From: a phage | Length of the DNA: 48,646 bases | Reading direction: 5' to 3' (one strand) | Sequence record: NC_136441.1 | In this document: piece after piece, positions 2,175 through 37,687 of the stretch | Position numbering within the stretch: the stretch's first letter is position 1 | How the letters are laid out: every line of letters begins with the position of its first letter | Translations under genes and position numbers: made by a program | Notes under the pieces: model-generated | The model's database searches: none | Told to the model about the DNA's origin: nothing | What the model saw: the letters and a program-made list of their open reading frames with translations, nothing else

Positions 2175-3470
2175 ATGAGCGACAAGGTAAAGGCCATTAC
2201 TAAAGAAGATGGTTACAACGAAATTTTCGGATCTAAAGATGGAACGTTTAGGCCAAATGCTTTTTACATGCAAAGTGCGGCATTTAAAACGTTATCGCAA
2301 TTTTATGAAGAAGATGGAATGGCGCGGCGCATTGTCGATGTTATTCCAGAAGAAATGGTAACGCCTGGTTTTAAAGTTGACGGCGTGAAAAATGAAAAGT
2401 CTTTTAAATCGCGTTGGGATGAATTGCGATTAAACGCTAAAATTATTGATGCGCTTTCATGGTCGCGTTTATTTGGCGGTTCTGCAATTCTTGCTGTTGT
2501 TGCTGATAACAGAATGCTGAAATCACCTGTAAAGCCTGGTGCACAACTTGAAGATATTCGCGTATATGATCGCTATCAGATCACCATTCAGGAACGTGAA
2601 ACTAATGCGCGGAGTGTTCGTTACGGTGAGCCAAAACTTTATAAGATCTCACCTGGCGGAGATATACCGGAATTCTTTGTTCATTACTCGCGTATTTGCA
2701 TCATTGATGGTGAGCGCGTATCGAATGAAAAACGCAGTCAAAATGATGGTTGGGGCGCAAGCATTTTAAACAAGCGTTTGATTGAGGCGATTATTGATTA
2801 TAACTATTGCCATGAATTAGCAACGCAATTGCTACGCAGAAAACAACAAGCAGTATGGAAAGCGCGTGATCTGGCTTTGATGTGCGACGATGAAGAAGGG
2901 CGCTATGCGGCGCGTTTGCGTTTGGCTCAGGTTGATGACGAAAGCGGAGTTGGTAAGGCAATTGGTATTGATGCCACCGATGAAGAATATGAGGTTCTCA
3001 ATTCTGACGTTTCCGGCGTTCCAGAGTTCTTACAGGAAAAGATTGATCGAATTGTTGCACTAACTGGCATTCATGAAATCATCCTCAAAAATAAGAACAC
3101 TGGCGGCGTTTCAGCGAGTCAAAACACGGCGCTAGAGACTTTCTATAAGTTAATTGATCGCAAGCGCGGAGAGGATTACAAGCCGATTCTTGAATTCCTT
3201 TTGCCGTTCATGATCTCAGAAGCGGAATGGTCGATTGAATTCGAGCCTTTAAGCGTTCCGAGTGATAAGGATAAAGCTGAAATCATGGCTAAAAACGTTG
3301 AGTCAATCGTTAAGCTGAAAGCAGAGCAAGCGATCGATCTCAAAGAAACGCGAGAGACTTTGCGATCAATCTGCCCTGACATTAAAATTAGTGATGGTGA
3401 CAACATTGAACTACCAGATCCAGAAGAACAGGAACCGGAGCCAGGAACGGAGGAATTAAACAATGAATGA
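2175..3470 (+). CDS. portal protein
   Basis: about 431 aa, position after terminase; ORF opens at 2121 but ATG 2175 has SD GGGGG 5 nt upstream; assignment by synteny and size. Confidence 0.65.
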   Translation: MSDKVKAITKEDGYNEIFGSKDGTFRPNAFYMQSAAFKTLSQFYEEDGMARRIVDVIPEEMVTPGFKVDGVKNEKSFKSRWDELRLNAKIIDALSWSRLFGGSAILAVVADNRMLKSPVKPGAQLEDIRVYDRYQITIQERETNARSVRYGEPKLYKISPGGDIPEFFVHYSRICIIDGERVSNEKRSQNDGWGASILNKRLIEAIIDYNYCHELATQLLRRKQQAVWKARDLALMCDDEEGRYAARLRLAQVDDESGVGKAIGIDATDEEYEVLNSDVSGVPEFLQEKIDRIVALTGIHEIILKNKNTGGVSASQNTALETFYKLIDRKRGEDYKPILEFLLPFMISEAEWSIEFEPLSVPSDKDKAEIMAKNVESIVKLKAEQAIDLKETRETLRSICPDIKISDGDNIELPDPEEQEPEPGTEELNNE

Positions 3471-4203
3471 TGTCTCATGGAGATTTCCAGAGGCAACGAG
3501 GCGCGACGTTGATCGCGCCTTACAATTGCTTGTGAGGGATCTTGTTGTAAGAATGCGCCGTAACACAAAGCGCCTTAAATTTGATGATCAGGTTAGTGAA
3601 GCGGCGGCAGATAATGAATCATACGCAGAGGAATTAATTTCCGCATTCATTGCGCTACTGCCAACTTTCGCGCTATCCATCTATAAATTCAACTCAAAGG
3701 AATTTATCAGGATCGCAAATAAGACTGGAGGCAAGAATAATTTAGCCGTCCTGTTGCTGATTGGTCGAGGTGCTAACGCTGGTGAATCGTGGTACGCGCC
3801 TAAATATCATGTATGGCGGCAAATGGTGCGCGACTCTATCAGAAAGATTGTTGACAATATTCTTGACGATTGGGAGATGCAAGTAAGGTTAGCCGAATTG
3901 CACGAAGCGGATCAGAAAAGACTAAATGCAATTATCGAAAGGCGATTTAAGGTCTATAAAAATTGGGCGTCCCGTCGCACTTCTGGTATAGTTGGCGCTT
4001 GGAATAGCGTGTTAATGTATCAGCGTTGCGTTGATGCTGGCGTTACCCATTATATTTGGCGCGGTCAGTTAGATGATCGCGAGCGTGAAAAACATTTGAT
4101 GTGGGAAAAGAAACGGATCGCCTTAACATCCAATCATGTTTTTCCTGGTGAGGAATTTAATTGTCGTTGTTGGGCGCAGCCGGATTGGGAGACAGCAAAA
4201 TGA
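3463..4203 (+). CDS. head morphogenesis protein (Mu F / SPP1 gp7-like minor capsid protein)
   Basis: 246 aa; C-terminal NCRC motif (EEFNCRCWAQP) typical of Mu F-like proteins; SD GGAGGA; overlaps portal stop. Confidence 0.6.
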   Translation: MNDVSWRFPEATRRDVDRALQLLVRDLVVRMRRNTKRLKFDDQVSEAAADNESYAEELISAFIALLPTFALSIYKFNSKEFIRIANKTGGKNNLAVLLLIGRGANAGESWYAPKYHVWRQMVRDSIRKIVDNILDDWEMQVRLAELHEADQKRLNAIIERRFKVYKNWASRRTSGIVGAWNSVLMYQRCVDAGVTHYIWRGQLDDREREKHLMWEKKRIALTSNHVFPGEEFNCRCWAQPDWETAK

Positions 4204-5309
4204 AAAAAGTGCAACGTTTTGACAGCGTGAGAGTAAAAGCGCATTTTGATGAACATGGTTTTTTAGTTGATCGTCCTATTGTGGCGCGAATTGGTTTGCA
4301 GATTTACCAAACGCCATTTGGAGAGCGTAGAGAATTCAGGCCAGCAAGTGAAGTATTCAAGGCTGATTCACTGGCAACTTACGCAGGAAAACCAATCACA
4401 GTAGGTCACGTAACTGTAACGCCGGAAAATGCGCGTAATGTCGTTGTTGGTACTTGTTCAGGCGCTGGAATCCCGAACGGGATCGGAGTTGAAGCGCCTT
4501 TGAATATTTACGCAAAGGATGCAATTGAAAGCGCGAAGAAAAAACAAACGGCTGAAATCAGCGTTGGCTATACTTCAATTGATATTGATAAGCCAGGCTG
4601 GGGGTCTAATGAAACGGGCGAATACATCTTTGAAGAAGATCTAAAAGATGGTGAGAAGCCGCCGAAAGATTGGGTTAAGTTTGATGCGCTACAAACAAAC
4701 ATTAGCGTAAACCATATTGCGCTTGTTTTTAAAGGTCGTGCCGGAATTGCAAAATTGAATCTTGATAGCGAACAGGAATTCCCGTATGATACTGACGTTA
4801 AATTAAATAAAGAGGACGAAGTTATGACCGTTAAAATTAAACTTGATGGTGCTGTTGAGTTTGACGTGCCAAAAGAAGTTGCTACCTTTATCGAAACCGT
4901 AAAGGCAGATGCTGAAAAAGCCAAAACCAAAGCCGACAGCCTGGAGGCAGAGCGTGACGCGCTACAGGCTAAAGTTGACGCCATTCCTGCGCAGATTGAA
5001 GAAGCTGTGAAAAAAGCAAAAGCTGACGCTGATGAACATGCCGCGCTGGTCGCTACCGCTTCCGAAGTTGGCGTAAAATGCGACGGCCTAACCGCCAAAG
5101 AAATTAAGATCGCATATGTGAAAGAGGTCATGGGTAATGACATTAGCGCAAAGGCTGATGCATATATTGATACCGCTTTTGATATTGCGAAAGAATCTGA
5201 TAAAATGGCGGCTCAACGTATCGCATTAAAAGGCGATGCAGCAAGAAACGAACAGGATGCAGCGGAAACCGTTCTTGATCCTTCCGCACGCCTGAATAAA
5301 GCTAAGTAA
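4200..5309 (+). CDS. putative capsid scaffolding / prohead maturation protein
   Basis: 369 aa between head morphogenesis and capsid genes; Ala/Lys/Glu-rich predicted coiled coil in C-terminal third; ATGA overlap with upstream gene. Confidence 0.35.
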   Translation: MKKVQRFDSVRVKAHFDEHGFLVDRPIVARIGLQIYQTPFGERREFRPASEVFKADSLATYAGKPITVGHVTVTPENARNVVVGTCSGAGIPNGIGVEAPLNIYAKDAIESAKKKQTAEISVGYTSIDIDKPGWGSNETGEYIFEEDLKDGEKPPKDWVKFDALQTNISVNHIALVFKGRAGIAKLNLDSEQEFPYDTDVKLNKEDEVMTVKIKLDGAVEFDVPKEVATFIETVKADAEKAKTKADSLEAERDALQAKVDAIPAQIEEAVKKAKADADEHAALVATASEVGVKCDGLTAKEIKIAYVKEVMGNDISAKADAYIDTAFDIAKESDKMAAQRIALKGDAARNEQDAAETVLDPSARLNKAK

Positions 5310-5321
5310 GGAGAAAATATT

Positions 5322-5801
5322 ATGGCTCAGATTTCAGCAAGTTATCATGTTGCAATGGCTCGCGCCTTGCCTGGTCAAGTTTCTGACACTTCCGCGTATA
5401 ACATCGACGGCGCTTGTGTTCTTGATGGTGATTCCGGATCAACAATTTATGTTGGCGTTGGTGTTCAACATGGCGGAGTTAGCGCAAGCGGTGAGAAATT
5501 AATTAAGGCTATGGCGGCGTCTGGTAATGCTTATGGTGTTGCTATTCGATCCAACTTCCAGACCACATCTAAAGATGGTCGCATGGTTTATGAGGCTGGT
5601 AGCGGAATTAACGTAATGACTAAAGGGCGCGTTTGGATGTTATCTGTAGAGTCGAAAGCGCCAGCATTCAAAACAGCTATCAAACTTGATAATTCAGGAC
5701 GGGTTGATTTAACGTCTGGATTAATTGAAACCACTTGGATCGCAACTGGAGACTTTACGGAATTCCAAGGTCTAAAACTCGTTGAGGTTCAACTGGTATA
5801 A
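5322..5801 (+). CDS. hypothetical structural protein (paralog 1)
   Basis: 159 aa, SD AAGGAG; shares motifs with the next ORF (YNIDG..., KGRVWM/HGRIWV, C-terminal LxxVQL). Confidence 0.5.
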   Translation: MAQISASYHVAMARALPGQVSDTSAYNIDGACVLDGDSGSTIYVGVGVQHGGVSASGEKLIKAMAASGNAYGVAIRSNFQTTSKDGRMVYEAGSGINVMTKGRVWMLSVESKAPAFKTAIKLDNSGRVDLTSGLIETTWIATGDFTEFQGLKLVEVQLV

Positions 5802-5807
5802 TAATAA

Positions 5808-5830
5808 GGCCGGATTATTCCGGCCTTTTA
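5808..5830 (+). terminator. rho-independent terminator
   Basis: GGCCGGA-TTAT-TCCGGCC stem-loop followed by TTTTA. Confidence 0.7.
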
Positions 5831-5844
5831 TATATGGTGGTTTT

Positions 5845-6285
5845 ATGTCTGATTACGGTTCTATAATAGGTATAGTTGAAAATGGGTGCTTGGTAGATTC
5901 AAGCCTTTATAATATAGATGGCTCGCCAGTTATGGATGTTTCAGCCGTGATAGGTAAGGCCGTATGTGTTGATCGCATATCTTGCGGTTACAAAATAATC
6001 AGCCACAATTTTAATGAAAACTCAAAGCATTACGGAATCGTTACGCGTGATTATATGGATTTTTGCAAAGAATATTACGACGCCGGAGATCCGGTTAACG
6101 TAATAACTCATGGTCGAATTTGGGTAATCACTCAGGACGAACAGGATATTCCATCGTATAAAGATCCTGTTTTTGTTAAAGACAATGGCTCTATATCAAC
6201 AAGTGGATTTCCTACTAGTTGGTTTTTTACTGGCGAATACGTAAGATATTCACACGGATATATTTTACTATCAGTTCAGTTGTAG
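5845..6285 (+). CDS. hypothetical structural protein (paralog 2)
   Basis: 146 aa from ATG 5845 (SD GGTGG); paralogous to 5322..5801. Confidence 0.5.
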   Translation: MSDYGSIIGIVENGCLVDSSLYNIDGSPVMDVSAVIGKAVCVDRISCGYKIISHNFNENSKHYGIVTRDYMDFCKEYYDAGDPVNVITHGRIWVITQDEQDIPSYKDPVFVKDNGSISTSGFPTSWFFTGEYVRYSHGYILLSVQL

Positions 6286-6305
6286 CGTGCTAACACAAAA
6301 AACAC

Positions 6306-6333
6306 TTGAACGTTTAACAAAAAATGCTATATT
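6306..6333 (+). promoter_or_regulatory. sigma70-like promoter upstream of major capsid gene
   Basis: TTGAAC-N16-TATATT. Confidence 0.4.
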
Positions 6334-6374
6334 AAAGCCGTTATTATGACTACTTTTCTATGAGGGAAAATATT

Positions 6375-7349
6375 ATGTCTAAAGAAATGAAATATGATGA
6401 ATTTGAAGCAAACGTGATCGCAAACCATATGCAGTTACGCGGAGCTAAAAACGACGCATCTGATATGGGTATTTGGACGGCTCAAGAGCTTCATAAAATT
6501 AAGGCTCAAGCCTATGAGAAAGAATATCCGGCAGGTTCCGCGCTGCGTGTATTCCCTGTAACGTCCGAACTTTCTGATACAGATAAAACCTTTGAATATC
6601 AGACTTTCGACAAAGTAGGACACGCAAAAATCATCGCTGATTACACTGATGATCTGCCAACTGTTGACGCGCTGATGACTTCTGAATTCGGTAAAGTGTT
6701 CCGCCTTGGTAATGCGTTCCTGATTTCCATTGACGAAATCAAAGCAGGTCAACGCACTGGCAAGAGCCTTTCCACTCGCAAGGCCAACGCCGCACAGAAT
6801 GCGCATGATCAGCTTGTAAATCACCTGGTTTTCAAAGGTTCTAAACCGCATAAAATTATCAGCGTGTTTGATCATCCAAACCTGACAACTATCAACTCCG
6901 CAGGTTGGAACAACGCCGCAGGTACTGGTAAAAAGCCGGAAACCGCACAGGATGAATTAGAGCAAGCGATTGAAAAAATCGAAACGCTGACAAACGGGCA
7001 GCACCGAGCTAATATGATCCTGATTCCGCCGTCAATGCGTAAAGTTCTGATGGTTCGTATGCCGGAAACCACCATGAGCTATCTTGATTATTTCAAGCAG
7101 CAGAATGGCGGTATCACTATCGAATCCATTTCAGAGCTTGAGGATATCGACGGTGCAGGCACTAAAGCGGCGCTGGTTTACGAAAAAGATCCGATGAACA
7201 TGAGCATTGAGATTCCAGAAGCGTTTAACATGCTTACCGCGCAACCTAAAGACCTGCATTTCAAAGTGCCTTGCACCTCTAAATGTACTGGCCTGACGAT
7301 TTACCGTCCGTTGACGCTTGTTCTGATTAAAGGTCTTGTAGTAGGCTGA
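6375..7349 (+). CDS. major capsid protein
   Basis: about 324 aa ORF (ATG 6375 with SD GAGGG) flanked by promoter and strong terminator; position and size fit major capsid protein. Confidence 0.65.
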   Translation: MSKEMKYDEFEANVIANHMQLRGAKNDASDMGIWTAQELHKIKAQAYEKEYPAGSALRVFPVTSELSDTDKTFEYQTFDKVGHAKIIADYTDDLPTVDALMTSEFGKVFRLGNAFLISIDEIKAGQRTGKSLSTRKANAAQNAHDQLVNHLVFKGSKPHKIISVFDHPNLTTINSAGWNNAAGTGKKPETAQDELEQAIEKIETLTNGQHRANMILIPPSMRKVLMVRMPETTMSYLDYFKQQNGGITIESISELEDIDGAGTKAALVYEKDPMNMSIEIPEAFNMLTAQPKDLHFKVPCTSKCTGLTIYRPLTLVLIKGLVVG

Positions 7350-25346: not shown

Positions 25347-25417
25347 CATCGTTAACGACAACGAGAAAGTCAATGAGCATGAGCCATCGAAAAGAAGTAT
25401 CAGTAGCAAGGTGAATA

Positions 25418-26344
25418 TTATAATAAGTCACTTGCCTTGTAAAGCATCCGCTCTATTCCATTTTTGAATTTTCCGTTAATTGGTAACATAACGTCTAATT
25501 CCCTTTCATCGGCTGCAATAATAGTTTCCTTGTCATCCTTATGGCAAACAACGCGCATTTTGCGATCTCCTTTGTACCTGTATGCTACAATTTCAAGATT
25601 TGATGCAGAGAAACAAGCCCATACTTCTTGTCCCGTCGCTAGGTGGATATGTTGCGCATCAATCCAATCAACGCAAAGATAGATCGTCTTATCAGTCTTG
25701 CCAGTTACTGCAACAGAGCCTCGCGTATAATCCTTAGCGTAAAAACTGCTTTGACCTTCCTCATTGACGAAAAGAATATTACACATATCATCGTCCAATT
25801 CATCACTATGCACTAGGTGGCAAGGAATGGCGTGAATATGTTCGCAGTATCCGTTGTCGTGAGTTTTTACGCCAACTTGATATGATTCACCATCTAACGG
25901 ATAAAACGCCTCAAAAACGCTTAGATTTGTTATTTCCATGCTTTCGGTTTTGCTCATAACATCAACGCATTTTTCGTGTGGCGCTTGAGATCCGAAACTA
26001 TAACCAGAATCACGCTTTGCCGCTTTGTTAGCCTTGTTGACAACCTCAACCGGAACCAGGTTTAACCATTCTCCTAGCGTGTCGATTGCTTCACTGTAAT
26101 TTTCACCACGGATACGCATGAATAATCCGATCCCTGAATCATTTCCGCACTGGTTGCAGATGTTCCCGCCGTCGCCTTTCTCGTTGATTTTATCAGTCCA
26201 GCGAAAGCGATCCTTACCTCCGCAATAAGGGCAAGGTTGATGTTTGCCGTTGAATGTTAATTGAGGAATATCACAAAGTTTCATCAATGCCGCTTGCCAC
26301 ATTCCGCGCATCTTTGGGATCACTTCTTCTTTCTGGTAATGCAT
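25418..26344 (-). CDS. DNA primase (P4-type zinc-ribbon N-terminus)
   Basis: 308 aa; CPYCGGKDRFRW...CNQCGN zinc ribbon; SD GGAGG; between tail fiber and helicase region. Confidence 0.5.
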   Translation of the reverse strand: MHYQKEEVIPKMRGMWQAALMKLCDIPQLTFNGKHQPCPYCGGKDRFRWTDKINEKGDGGNICNQCGNDSGIGLFMRIRGENYSEAIDTLGEWLNLVPVEVVNKANKAAKRDSGYSFGSQAPHEKCVDVMSKTESMEITNLSVFEAFYPLDGESYQVGVKTHDNGYCEHIHAIPCHLVHSDELDDDMCNILFVNEEGQSSFYAKDYTRGSVAVTGKTDKTIYLCVDWIDAQHIHLATGQEVWACFSASNLEIVAYRYKGDRKMRVVCHKDDKETIIAADERELDVMLPINGKFKNGIERMLYKASDLL

Positions 26345-29833: not shown

Positions 29834-30574
29834 ATGGCTAAGGATTTTCAGGACAAAGCAACCATTGATACTTTTGAGCCGGAAATGGATTTTCATGAAC
29901 TGCAACACGGCAGATATTCAGATATTGCGTTGCGTTCAGGTGGTCATTATCAGCCAGTTAGAGAAAACCCAATGTTCAAGGTTAGCGGCAACCGTTATGC
30001 AGGAAGTAAAACGCCGGACGTTGTGCGCGACTTGTGGGAAACTCCAGATGAAATTGTTGAATACCTTGCTGAACGTTACGGCAAATATGATCTTGATGCA
30101 GCCGCAAGCGAAAACAACAAAAAATGCGATAAGTTTTATAGCAAAGAGACAAACTGCTTAAAGCGTTGGTGGGGTAGCAATAAGCACGTTTGGTTAAATC
30201 CACCATACAGCAATCCAGATCCATTTATCAAAAAAGCAATTGAGCAGATGGAACACGGAAACCAGATTGATATTTTACTTCCGGCTGATAATTCAACTGC
30301 ATGGTTTAGTGACGCACAAAAACACGCGGCAGAAATTATCTGGATTACTGGTGAAACCTGGAAGGATGAAGAAGGTCGCGAATATTCCCGAACTGGTCGA
30401 GTGGCGTTTATTTCTGGCATGACAGGTGAGCCAGTTAGCGGAAACAATAAAGGTAGTGTAATTTTTATCATGCGCCAATTGGAAGAAGGTGAGCAACAGC
30501 AAACACACTATGTGAAGATTAGCGACATTTGCCCTTCCGTAAAAAATAAACGAGCCAAAGCGCGGAGTATTTAA
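29834..30574 (+). CDS. dam: DNA N6-adenine methyltransferase (phage Dam-type)
   Basis: 246 aa; catalytic NPPY motif (WLNPPYS) and DLDAAAS region typical of phage N6-adenine MTases. Confidence 0.75.
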   Translation: MAKDFQDKATIDTFEPEMDFHELQHGRYSDIALRSGGHYQPVRENPMFKVSGNRYAGSKTPDVVRDLWETPDEIVEYLAERYGKYDLDAAASENNKKCDKFYSKETNCLKRWWGSNKHVWLNPPYSNPDPFIKKAIEQMEHGNQIDILLPADNSTAWFSDAQKHAAEIIWITGETWKDEEGREYSRTGRVAFISGMTGEPVSGNNKGSVIFIMRQLEEGEQQQTHYVKISDICPSVKNKRAKARSI

Positions 30575-36510: not shown

Positions 36511-36554
36511 ATTATGCCGGATACGTGATCCGGCGTTTTAACAAAAAGTGCTAT
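36511..36554 (-). promoter_or_regulatory. motif promoter (ATAGCACTTTTTGTTAAAAC + 22 nt + CATAAT)
   Basis: minus strand; motif overlaps TAG stop of MTase-like gene; hairpin GCCGGAT/ATCCGGC in spacer. Confidence 0.55.
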
Positions 36555-37246
36555 TTCTGATTTGCCAGGCATACAGCAAGCGCAAAGCCGCGCGGAGTGA
36601 GTGAGCGGATCAGCTTTGTTCGCTTAGACTTTCCGCCGAGCTTTTGCCAGCCTGGATTGTTGTTCCCTGTTGGCAATACTGCGTTTGTATCCGGCATCAC
36701 AAAACCGTTACCCGTCCAAAGGCAAGTTTTTTTGGTGTACGCATCGCGAGCAGGAATGATTTCAGGAAAGTGAGGATGATTATCATCTTCCGGCAACAAA
36801 CCGCCAAACGCGCAAGGATGAAATATAAAATCAGGTTGCCGCCACATCGACGACAGGACGCTAACAGGATTCTCGATCATGTATGGAACGTTGAACCAAT
36901 CCGCAATTTCAGCCGCAATCTTGCATGTTGAAACGGCCTTGTCCTGGAATAGCGGATCACGTTCACGCTTTGCGGCAAAGTGACGCGAACCGCTAACAGC
37001 TAAATCAGTGCATGGAGGAAACGCGATCACAAAATCAGGCTTGCCGTAAACCTCATTGCGAGCCTTAAAGCTGAAATCTGAATCAATCCAAACGTTTACA
37101 TACTCAATGTTTTGATGACTTACGCGCACTGAATGGTAATCACCATGATCGGCATCATCATAATTGAAACAGATTACTTTGTGACCACGTTCAGCCCACG
37201 GCAACGCATCATAACCGGAACCGCTAAAAAGAGAAAAAACCAACAT
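36551..37246 (-). CDS. compact DNA cytosine-5 methyltransferase-like protein
   Basis: 231 aa from ATG 37246 (SD AAGGA); motif I-like LFSGSGYD, motif IV-like FPPCTDLAVSG (PCT not PCQ), motif VI-like MIENPVSV; no large target-recognition domain. Confidence 0.45.
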   Translation of the reverse strand: MLVFSLFSGSGYDALPWAERGHKVICFNYDDADHGDYHSVRVSHQNIEYVNVWIDSDFSFKARNEVYGKPDFVIAFPPCTDLAVSGSRHFAAKRERDPLFQDKAVSTCKIAAEIADWFNVPYMIENPVSVLSSMWRQPDFIFHPCAFGGLLPEDDNHPHFPEIIPARDAYTKKTCLWTGNGFVMPDTNAVLPTGNNNPGWQKLGGKSKRTKLIRSLTPRGFALAVCLANQK

Positions 37247-37354
37247 ACTTAAATCCTTTGTGTATGGCCTTGTGAGGCGTTTTGTTTGTAGGTGTGACAA
37301 TCGTATTAGTTACGGCCTGAAATCGCGCCATAATGCGAAACAGGCCGCTATTTT

Positions 37355-37432
37355 TTACTTACAGAATGGGCATGTTGTTTTATCCCCGCTTCCGCCGTGT
37401 TTTGGACAGCAAATTTTTTCGATAGGTGTCAT
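37355..37432 (-). CDS. hypothetical 25-aa zinc-ribbon-like peptide
   Basis: MTPIEKICCPKHGGSGDKTTCPFCK with SD GGAGTA 6 nt upstream. Confidence 0.25.
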   Translation of the reverse strand: MTPIEKICCPKHGGSGDKTTCPFCK

Positions 37433-37444
37433 TTTAAATACTCC

Positions 37445-37687
37445 TTAGAATGGGAAACAACGCTTGCAAGATGGATCGAAGTTACAACCGCAATCATTGA
37501 TTATTGCGTTAGGATCAGCAAGCATCACGCTACTTTCTTGATCCATATCCATAGCGCCTAATGCGTCATCAAGCGTTATTTCAAGATAGGCAACTTTAAG
37601 CGCCCATTCCTTGTTGAGTCCAGCCGCCTCCGCTTCATGTAGGCGAGCAAAGAAAGCATCTTGAACCATATCAACCCCACTTCTCAA
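37445..37687 (-). CDS. hypothetical acidic protein with C-terminal Cys cluster
   Basis: 80 aa, ends CGCNFDPSCKRCFPF. Confidence 0.4.
   Translation of the reverse strand: MRSGVDMVQDAFFARLHEAEAAGLNKEWALKVAYLEITLDDALGAMDMDQESSVMLADPNAIINDCGCNFDPSCKRCFPF

Follow-up and report, generated by a model that had tools for sequence, protein, structure and literature searches.

Can a phage protein of only 231 amino acids (aa), with no separate domain for reading DNA, be a working cytosine-5 methyltransferase (C5-MTase), and which site would it methylate? The question is raised by a minus-strand gene in NC_136441.1, a 48,646-base sequence of a T1-like enterobacterial phage (hereafter, the window). An earlier reading of the sequence alone (the sequence-only reading) had proposed that the gene could encode a minimal DNA 5-methylcytosine (5mC) methyltransferase. 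This proposal is supported by the assignment of the protein to the PHROG 757 family, by its predicted fold, by the conservation of the catalytic Cys, the Glu and the motifs for binding of S-adenosylmethionine (AdoMet), and by its identity and synteny with the 'Dcm' of phage K42. By orthology with this enzyme, the gene product is most likely an active AdoMet-dependent DNA C5-MTase of the compact 'Dcm-like' family. The gene belongs to a large, already annotated phage family with an experimentally studied ortholog; it is real but ordinary.

Family membership and the ortholog of phage K42

Profile searches placed the protein in PHROG 757, 'DNA methyltransferase' (E 9.3e-87; residues 1–230 against profile positions 15–219 of 247), and not in a family outside the methyltransferases. 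A search of the NCBIfam library with the window protein returned no match, the best PDB sequence match had an E-value of 0.2, and the PADLOC matches, to type II methylases, were weak and confined to the N-terminus (E about 0.02–0.04). The family is nevertheless widespread. It was found by tblastn in 1525 of 50,697 phage records, the carriers including Escherichia, Klebsiella, Salmonella, Vibrio, Shewanella and Arthrobacter phages with genomes of 36–164 kb, while a protein search yielded 5371 homologous clusters at 90% identity, and an exhaustive search 2018 representatives (50% identity) at E<=1e-3. Among the best 150 of these 2018 representatives, lengths are mostly 210–260 aa, and the window protein carries the PPCT, ENP and Y-x-K-x-T-x-x-W signatures of the compact family. 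Since the family is large and mostly of this size, compactness is a family trait and not the result of truncation. Because the family falls below the curated Pfam and NCBIfam thresholds, many of its copies are still labelled 'hypothetical protein'.

The same inconsistency is found among the closest phage records, in several of which the gene is labelled DNA cytosine methyltransferase and in others hypothetical protein. The DNA of the methylase region is 98% identical to that of Salmonella phage vB_SenS_UTK0006 and 94–98% identical to that of Citrobacter and Escherichia phages such as U136B and Sazh (Drexlerviridae, Tempevirinae, Tlsvirus). GenBank entry OR786094.1, 'Streptococcus phage MBBL140' (host Streptococcus agalactiae), is also 97.6% identical over a 2-kb query; this record is probably mislabelled as to its host or a contaminant.

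The strongest functional evidence for the window protein is, by orthology, the formation of 5mC by its ortholog in phage K42 (Drexlerviridae, KarlJaspers strain), which was described in a study of retron Ec86 (Eco1) (preprint 10.1101/2023.08.16.553469; later Wang et al., Cell Rep 2024;43:114857). All K42 mutants escaping the retron disrupt a 711-bp 'Dcm-like C5 cytosine methyltransferase' gene, a point mutation 9 bp upstream of it having been found in escapers, and expression of K42 dcm sets off the retron (10.1101/2023.08.16.553469). Multicopy single-stranded DNA (msDNA) of cells expressing K42 dcm contained high 5mC, as determined by liquid chromatography coupled to mass spectrometry (LC-MS), whereas the C82A/E128A/K175A/K176A mutant neither methylated DNA nor triggered the retron (10.1101/2023.08.16.553469).

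The corresponding gene of KarlJaspers (MZ501090, Bas06), bas06_0055, is likewise 711 bp long, and its product shares 67% full-length identity with the window protein (E 4e-119). It lies upstream of two small open reading frames (ORFs) and a DUF3987 helicase gene, and is thus syntenic with the window gene. The four mutated residues of the K42 enzyme correspond to C79, E125, K172 and K173 of the window protein, with identical spacing (46 and 47 residues). The two enzymes come from the same subfamily (Drexlerviridae, Tempevirinae) but from different genera, Hanrivervirus and Tlsvirus-like, respectively, and 33% of the residues differ, including parts of the loop at residues 183–212.

Conserved motifs and predicted fold

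The C5-MTase-like motifs noticed earlier are present in the order claimed for them: FSGSGYD at residues 7–13, FPPCTDLAVSG at residues 76–86 (with Cys79) and MIENPVSV at residues 123–130 (Table 1). Conservation, given here as counts out of 118, was assessed in a set of 117 representatives of low mutual identity. Cys79 is conserved in 111, and Glu125, Asn126 and Pro127 in 115, 109 and 116 sequences, respectively. The catalytic Cys is indeed followed by Thr (Thr80), but this residue had been regarded as an oddity in place of Gln, and that part does not hold: Thr is the family norm (102/118), while Gln occurs in a single sequence (1/118).

In the wider family, motif I reads LFD-x-[TS]-G and aligns to SLFDGIATG of DNMT3B. 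Position 28 (motif II) is Asp in 105/118 sequences, yet an invariant Asn in the subfamily that contains the window protein and the K42 enzyme; Asp55, at the motif III position at the end of the third strand, is Asp in 85/118. By analogy with known enzymes, the region of residues 28–55 would contact the ribose and adenine of AdoMet. The Arg-x-Arg of motif VIII is replaced by Lys172-Lys173-Thr174. Lys172 (109/118), Thr174 (107/118) and Trp177 (114/118) are highly conserved, D168 and Y170 are also nearly invariant, and K173 is variable; another conserved Arg, R136 or R214, might compensate. In the motif X segment, Arg214 (109/118), Pro218 (111/118) and Gly220 (112/118) stand out, and S215 is nearly invariant too.

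The observation that the protein is short and has no separate target-recognition domain was borne out. Only 42 residues separate Lys172 from the motif X Arg214, a distance too short to accommodate motif IX and a target-recognition domain. Within this stretch, residues 183–212 form the most variable segment of the protein, of which no fewer than two versions exist (NNPGW and GYSxQH).

Table 1. Coordinates of the methyltransferase gene, its motifs and the companion Dam gene in the window
Feature	Position	Strand	Remarks
Coding sequence of the compact C5-cytosine DNA methyltransferase	36551..37246	minus	231 aa; stop codon 36551-36553; from ORF list, PHROG 757 and ortholog match
Shine-Dalgarno AAGGA	37254..37258	minus	7-nt spacer to ATG; U136B annotates a ribosome-binding site at the same place
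Motif I, residues 4-13 (FSLFSGSGYD), AdoMet-binding loop after beta-1	37208..37237	minus	G9/S10/G11 invariant in close homologs
Motif II/III region, residues 28-55	37082..37165	minus	From conservation counts; strands from the model
Motif IV, residues 76-86 (FPPCTDLAVSG)	36989..37021	minus	Catalytic Cys79 codon 37010-37012; Thr80 for the usual Gln
Motif VI, residues 123-130 (MIENPVSV)	36857..36880	minus	Glu125 is the ENV-type glutamate
Motif VIII-like segment, residues 168-182 (DAYTKKTCLWTGNGF)	36701..36745	minus	Lys172/Lys173 at the canonical RxR place
Variable basic loop, residues 183-212	36611..36700	minus	At the place of motif IX and the target-recognition domain; candidate DNA-reading element
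Motif X helix, residues 213-229 (IRSLTPRGFALAVCLAN)	36560..36610	minus	Nearly invariant residues; helix 219-229 in the model
Dam-type N6-adenine DNA methyltransferase	29834..30574	plus	Pfam PF05869, E 1.8e-62; same phage, companion gene

The AlphaFold2 model built with the family alignment was of high confidence (predicted local distance difference test, pLDDT, 91; predicted template modelling score, pTM, 0.89). A loop and two short helices make up the stretch from K172 to R214 in the model, whose least confident part is residues 183–212 (pLDDT about 71–73). The model has a class I methyltransferase fold that is nearest to solved C5-MTases. DNMT3B and DNMT3A rank first in the Foldseek search (E about 1e-6), and the only PDB matches of the family profile are DNMT3B chains, so structure prediction favours the C5-MTase reading. 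The structure comparison figures were 12.9 for CmoX, 12.4 for a methylase of prophage CP-933R, 12.2 for DNMT3A, 11.3 for M.HaeIII and 11.2 for M.HhaI, and about 10.4–11 for DNMT1, EhMeth (Dnmt2-type), M.MpeI and other Dnmt2 enzymes.

The SLFDG and Pro-Cys-[Thr/Asn]-Asp-Leu motifs of DNMT3A and DNMT3B resemble those of the family, and this likeness is backed by profile alignment, although identity to the window protein is only about 17–19%. DNMT3 enzymes have Pro-Cys-Asn at motif IV, and their motifs VIII and X are about 100 residues apart, compared with 42 in the window protein; the DNMT3 enzymes act on CpG in complexes with DNMT3L or as homo-oligomers. When the family alignment was compared by hhalign with a DNMT3A catalytic-domain sequence, only motifs I–IV were aligned (probability 45%). 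Because this covers only the N-terminal half, the likeness of the motif VIII-like segment to HRARYFWGN of DNMT3A, and of motif X to GRSWSVP of DNMT3, is a by-eye reading. The likeness to DNMT3 is therefore a resemblance, and common descent is established only at the level of the C5-MTase superfamily. No discussion of it was found in the literature search.

Other known enzymes were also compared with the window protein. Escherichia coli Dcm and M.EcoRII, from which the name 'Dcm-like' is derived, have its chemistry and, presumably, its target motif; their recognition domain is large, and they have PCQ where the window protein has PCT. They are about twice the size of the window protein (the M.EcoRII homolog of phage KL3 has 422 aa), and Vsr and/or a restriction enzyme may accompany them, as in KL3. 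No conserved partner gene was found for the compact family. Compared with M.HhaI and M.HaeIII (PF00145), the window protein lacks the small domain (motif IX and the target-recognition domain), and has Thr for Gln and Lys-Lys-Thr for Arg-x-Arg. CmoX (PDB 8yf3), a phage DNA cytosine C5-carboxymethyltransferase, is longer (333 aa in the solved chain) and uses carboxy-S-adenosylmethionine (Cx-SAM) via a key Arg.

From the conserved motifs and the canonical chemistry of C5-MTases, the following mechanism may be proposed. AdoMet would lie on the Rossmann-like core, where motif I (FSGSG), Asn28, Asp55 and the helix of motif X would bind it. The cytosine to be methylated would be flipped into the pocket, where Cys79 of Pro-Pro-Cys-Thr would attack C6 and Glu125 of Glu-Asn-Pro would protonate N3, the methyl group being passed to C5; Lys172 and Lys173 would stand in for Arg-x-Arg. 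As the enzyme is a catalytic domain alone, sequence reading would have to come from the catalytic loop (residues 80–100) and the basic loop of about 30 residues (183–212), possibly helped by oligomerisation.

Target site, role and competing explanations

Several palindromes are strikingly and selectively rare in the window. AAGCTT, AGGCCT, CACGTG, CCGCGG, CTGCAG, CTTAAG, GCCGGC, GGATCC and GGCGCC are absent, with 7–18 copies of each expected, and the observed/expected counts of GGWCC, GGSCC and CCSGG are 0/15, 1/9.2 and 2/14.4, respectively. Conversely, GAATTC, GATATC, GTTAAC, TCGCGA, CCGG, GATC and CCWGG are found at or above expectation. CCWGG occurs 106 times against 96 expected (59 from base composition alone), and GATC, the Dam site, 285 times against 256 expected.

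For a comparison across genomes, T1-like loci were retrieved via the neighbouring helicase, giving 12 non-redundant gene-positive and 6 gene-negative loci. The pooled observed/expected ratio of CCWGG was 1.08 in the former and 0.84 in the latter (one-sided Mann-Whitney p 0.026), and depletion of CCSGG was stronger in the loci with the gene (p 0.014), the sample being small, the loci not phylogenetically independent, and the statistic blind to kinship. The Dam site served as a control. GATC observed/expected was 0.71–1.11 in loci with a Dam gene in the fetched stretch (0.51 in locus L102) and 0.14–0.36 in those without, with the exception of L095 (0.76), in which no Dam gene is present in the 11.7 kb fetched. 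The GATC counts thus carry a clear genomic imprint of protection by Dam. GATC-depleted T1-like loci without Dam were found in phage Rtp (L089) and among L097–L103. Dhillonvirus Teewinot, which has only a methylase remnant, shows no strong site avoidance and is thus not an informative control.

The pattern fits a situation in which CCWGG is shielded by methylation, while CCSGG sites, outside the reach of a CCWGG methylase, are removed. Retention of CCWGG together with removal of CCSGG is what selection by CCNGG- and CCWGG-cutting enzymes would produce. The enzyme may accordingly be pictured as follows: the inner C of CCWGG would be methylated on replicating phage DNA, and an orphan methylase, acting without a cognate restriction enzyme, would, together with the phage Dam, protect the phage against restriction of the EcoRII and CCNGG types. 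Triggering of retron Ec86/Eco1 would then be a side effect of the methylase activity. We infer CCWGG as the somewhat favoured target; an anti-restriction role is plausible, with the chances about even.

Beside the limits of the locus comparison, a number of points weigh against this picture. The match to Pfam PF00145 is below the gathering cut-off (15.5 bits against 22; E 0.012) and confined to residues 3–102; it ends at the N-terminal core, and nothing is shared with the target-recognition domain of Dcm and M.EcoRII. The place of the second motif VIII Arg is taken by the conserved T174, so active-site details depart from those of textbook enzymes. The site counts are indirect evidence, and host Dcm alone could account for the retention of CCWGG. 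In the K42 study, the CCWGG motif was taken over from E. coli Dcm and supported by msDNA stem mutants only; in dcm+ MG1655 lacking the phage enzyme, msDNA contained little 5mC and the retron was not triggered, and overexpression of K42 Dcm was reported to be toxic (10.1101/2023.08.16.553469). According to the BASEL study, methyltransferase content is not linked to restriction resistance in Drexlerviridae, and the Tlsvirus phage Bas08 is highly restriction-sensitive. No mapped methylome of a T1-like phage was found in the literature search.

Part of these points is shared by the only rival with real weight, namely that the protein is a DNA C5-MTase with a target other than CCWGG (shorter, relaxed or structure-dependent, such as hairpin or mismatched DNA), for which 'Dcm-like' would be a misnomer. 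The scant methylation of msDNA by host Dcm and the toxicity of the overexpressed phage enzyme fit a specificity not identical to that of host Dcm, and the motif of the K42 enzyme was assumed and not mapped. The short and variable stretch between K172 and R214, the restriction of similarity to canonical enzymes to the N-terminal core, and the structural proximity of DNMT3B/3A, which are CpG readers with a small loop, point in the same direction. Against it stand the sparing of CCWGG in a genome purged of GGWCC, GGSCC and CCSGG, the higher CCWGG content of gene-positive T1-like loci, and the finding that mutation of either C of the msDNA CCTGG abolishes retron defence (10.1101/2023.08.16.553469). 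A different target is thus a possible explanation, though not a probable one; if true, it would explain why Eco1 is triggered by the phage enzyme but not by host Dcm. It is likewise only a tentative suggestion that the family represents the smallest known sequence-specific DNA C5-MTase, with an undescribed mode of reading (by loops or oligomerisation) and a specificity that is possibly not CCWGG.

The remaining explanations concern the chemistry, the substrate or the activity itself. An altered chemistry or substrate, as entertained by the sequence-only reading, gained no support beyond a generic fold match. Transfer of a non-methyl group, such as carboxymethyl from Cx-SAM in the manner of CmoX, might be suspected from the residue after the catalytic Cys, and E. 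coli CmoA can supply Cx-SAM to phage CmoX. CmoX genes typically accompany phage cmoA and amide ligase genes, but no cmoA or ligase gene was found among the scanned neighbours of the methylase gene or in about 10 kb of the U136B annotation, and the product of the ortholog was 5mC by LC-MS. Moreover, Thr80 is normal for the family and DNMT3 has Asn at this position, so the residue is not diagnostic and gives no reason to expect altered chemistry, which is very improbable. Equally far-fetched is a DNMT2-type RNA (tRNA) m5C methyltransferase: DNMT2 enzymes, although of the same general fold, score below the DNA enzymes in structure comparison, members of the family are fused or adjacent to DNA adenine methylases, the ortholog methylates DNA, and the genome bears a CCWGG signature. 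Finally, the sub-threshold Pfam score, Asn in place of the acidic motif II residue and Thr in place of the second motif VIII Arg could be taken as marks of a catalytically dead relic or a non-enzymatic binder of DNA or AdoMet. This is the most improbable of the explanations, since the nucleophilic Cys, the Glu of ENP and the motifs for AdoMet hardly vary among some 2000 divergent representatives, neither methylation nor retron triggering was left in the ortholog mutated at four active-site residues, and Asn28 is invariant in the very subfamily that includes the active K42 enzyme. An active DNA C5-MTase is thus the preferred reading of the gene.

Gene surroundings and distribution of the family

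The longest minus-strand ORF at the locus, counted from its first TTG, spans 36551..37300 (249 aa), with the ATG of the 231-aa product internal to it at 37246-37244. Close homologs begin with MLVFSLF or MLIFSMF, in agreement with the shorter product, and U136B_077 of the near-identical phage U136B is annotated with the same start and ribosome-binding site. The start at 37246 was accepted because the AAGGA sequence precedes this ATG by 7 nt and because the homologs and U136B_077 start there. The leftward block of genes is tightly packed except for a 198-bp non-coding gap (37247..37444) upstream of the methylase gene. Scans for promoters and terminators in the surroundings of the gene returned no more than expected from shuffled sequence, and no consensus promoter or terminator was found in the gap.

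As in KarlJaspers, two small ORFs and the DUF3987 helicase gene lie downstream of the gene. Its neighbours in the window were assigned no function by the library scans. The ORF at 37445..37687 (minus strand) encodes 80 aa, or 74 aa when read from the ATG chosen for U136B, and its C-terminus contains a Cys-rich string, CGCNFDPSCKRC. It was considered as a second methylase subunit, since its U136B counterpart (U136B_078) is named 'putative cytosine DNA methylase', and rejected: it has no Pfam match and falls into PHROG 9323, a family of unknown function. The label of U136B_078 looks unfounded. The statement that the phage also encodes Dam proved correct, the companion gene being identified by its strong match to PF05869 (Table 1).

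The methylase gene is absent from phages T1 and Rtp. In T1 (NC_005833, 44517-46624) no methylase is present and an HNH endonuclease gene, ST8, adjoins the helicase gene. In Teewinot (25402-25907), a 61-aa C-terminal methylase remnant (gp36) is flanked by the helicase gene on one side and an HNH endonuclease gene on the other. The methylase slot beside the DUF3987 helicase thus turns over, and the HNH genes of T1 and Teewinot suggest that homing endonucleases are involved in the loss of the gene.

A scan of bacterial genomes revealed members of the family in Proteobacteria, Desulfovibrionaceae, Planctomycetes, Actinobacteria and others. When all neighbour ORFs were clustered across 80 bacterial loci, no conserved partner gene (restriction enzyme or Vsr) was found. 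Large neighbour-ORF clusters did emerge and were rejected as partners, as they consist of alternative-frame ORFs inside the methylase gene itself. Among the sampled loci, two lie in prophage settings, with terminase and DnaB genes, and in Yersinia aleksiciae a Dam gene directly follows a prophage copy. The member in Aeoliella sp. (Planctomycetota; 3429-6630) is located about 0.8 kb downstream of a gene for a type IV secretion coupling protein (TraG/VirD4-like), which indicates that the family rides conjugative elements too and not phages alone. Fusions were also identified. A 563-aa protein (P0253) has the compact C5-methylase domain N-terminal to a D12-class N6-adenine methylase, and in BFVD entries A0A6J5SE15 (1397 aa) and A0A6J5NPY6 (1126 aa) the domain is found within very large phage proteins, one of which is named helicase. 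Based on the lack of a conserved neighbour, the prophage and conjugative settings, and the fusions, the family gene is an orphan DNA methylase of mobile elements and not one half of a restriction-modification pair.

The annotation is thereby settled: the gene is the orphan cytosine-5 DNA methylase of the phage, the partner of its Dam. By orthology, its product would be the activity sensed by retron Eco1 (Ec86). How such an enzyme chooses its site without a recognition domain bears on the engineering of minimal methylases, on the reading of phage methylomes, and on the way in which Eco1 tells phage from host methylation.

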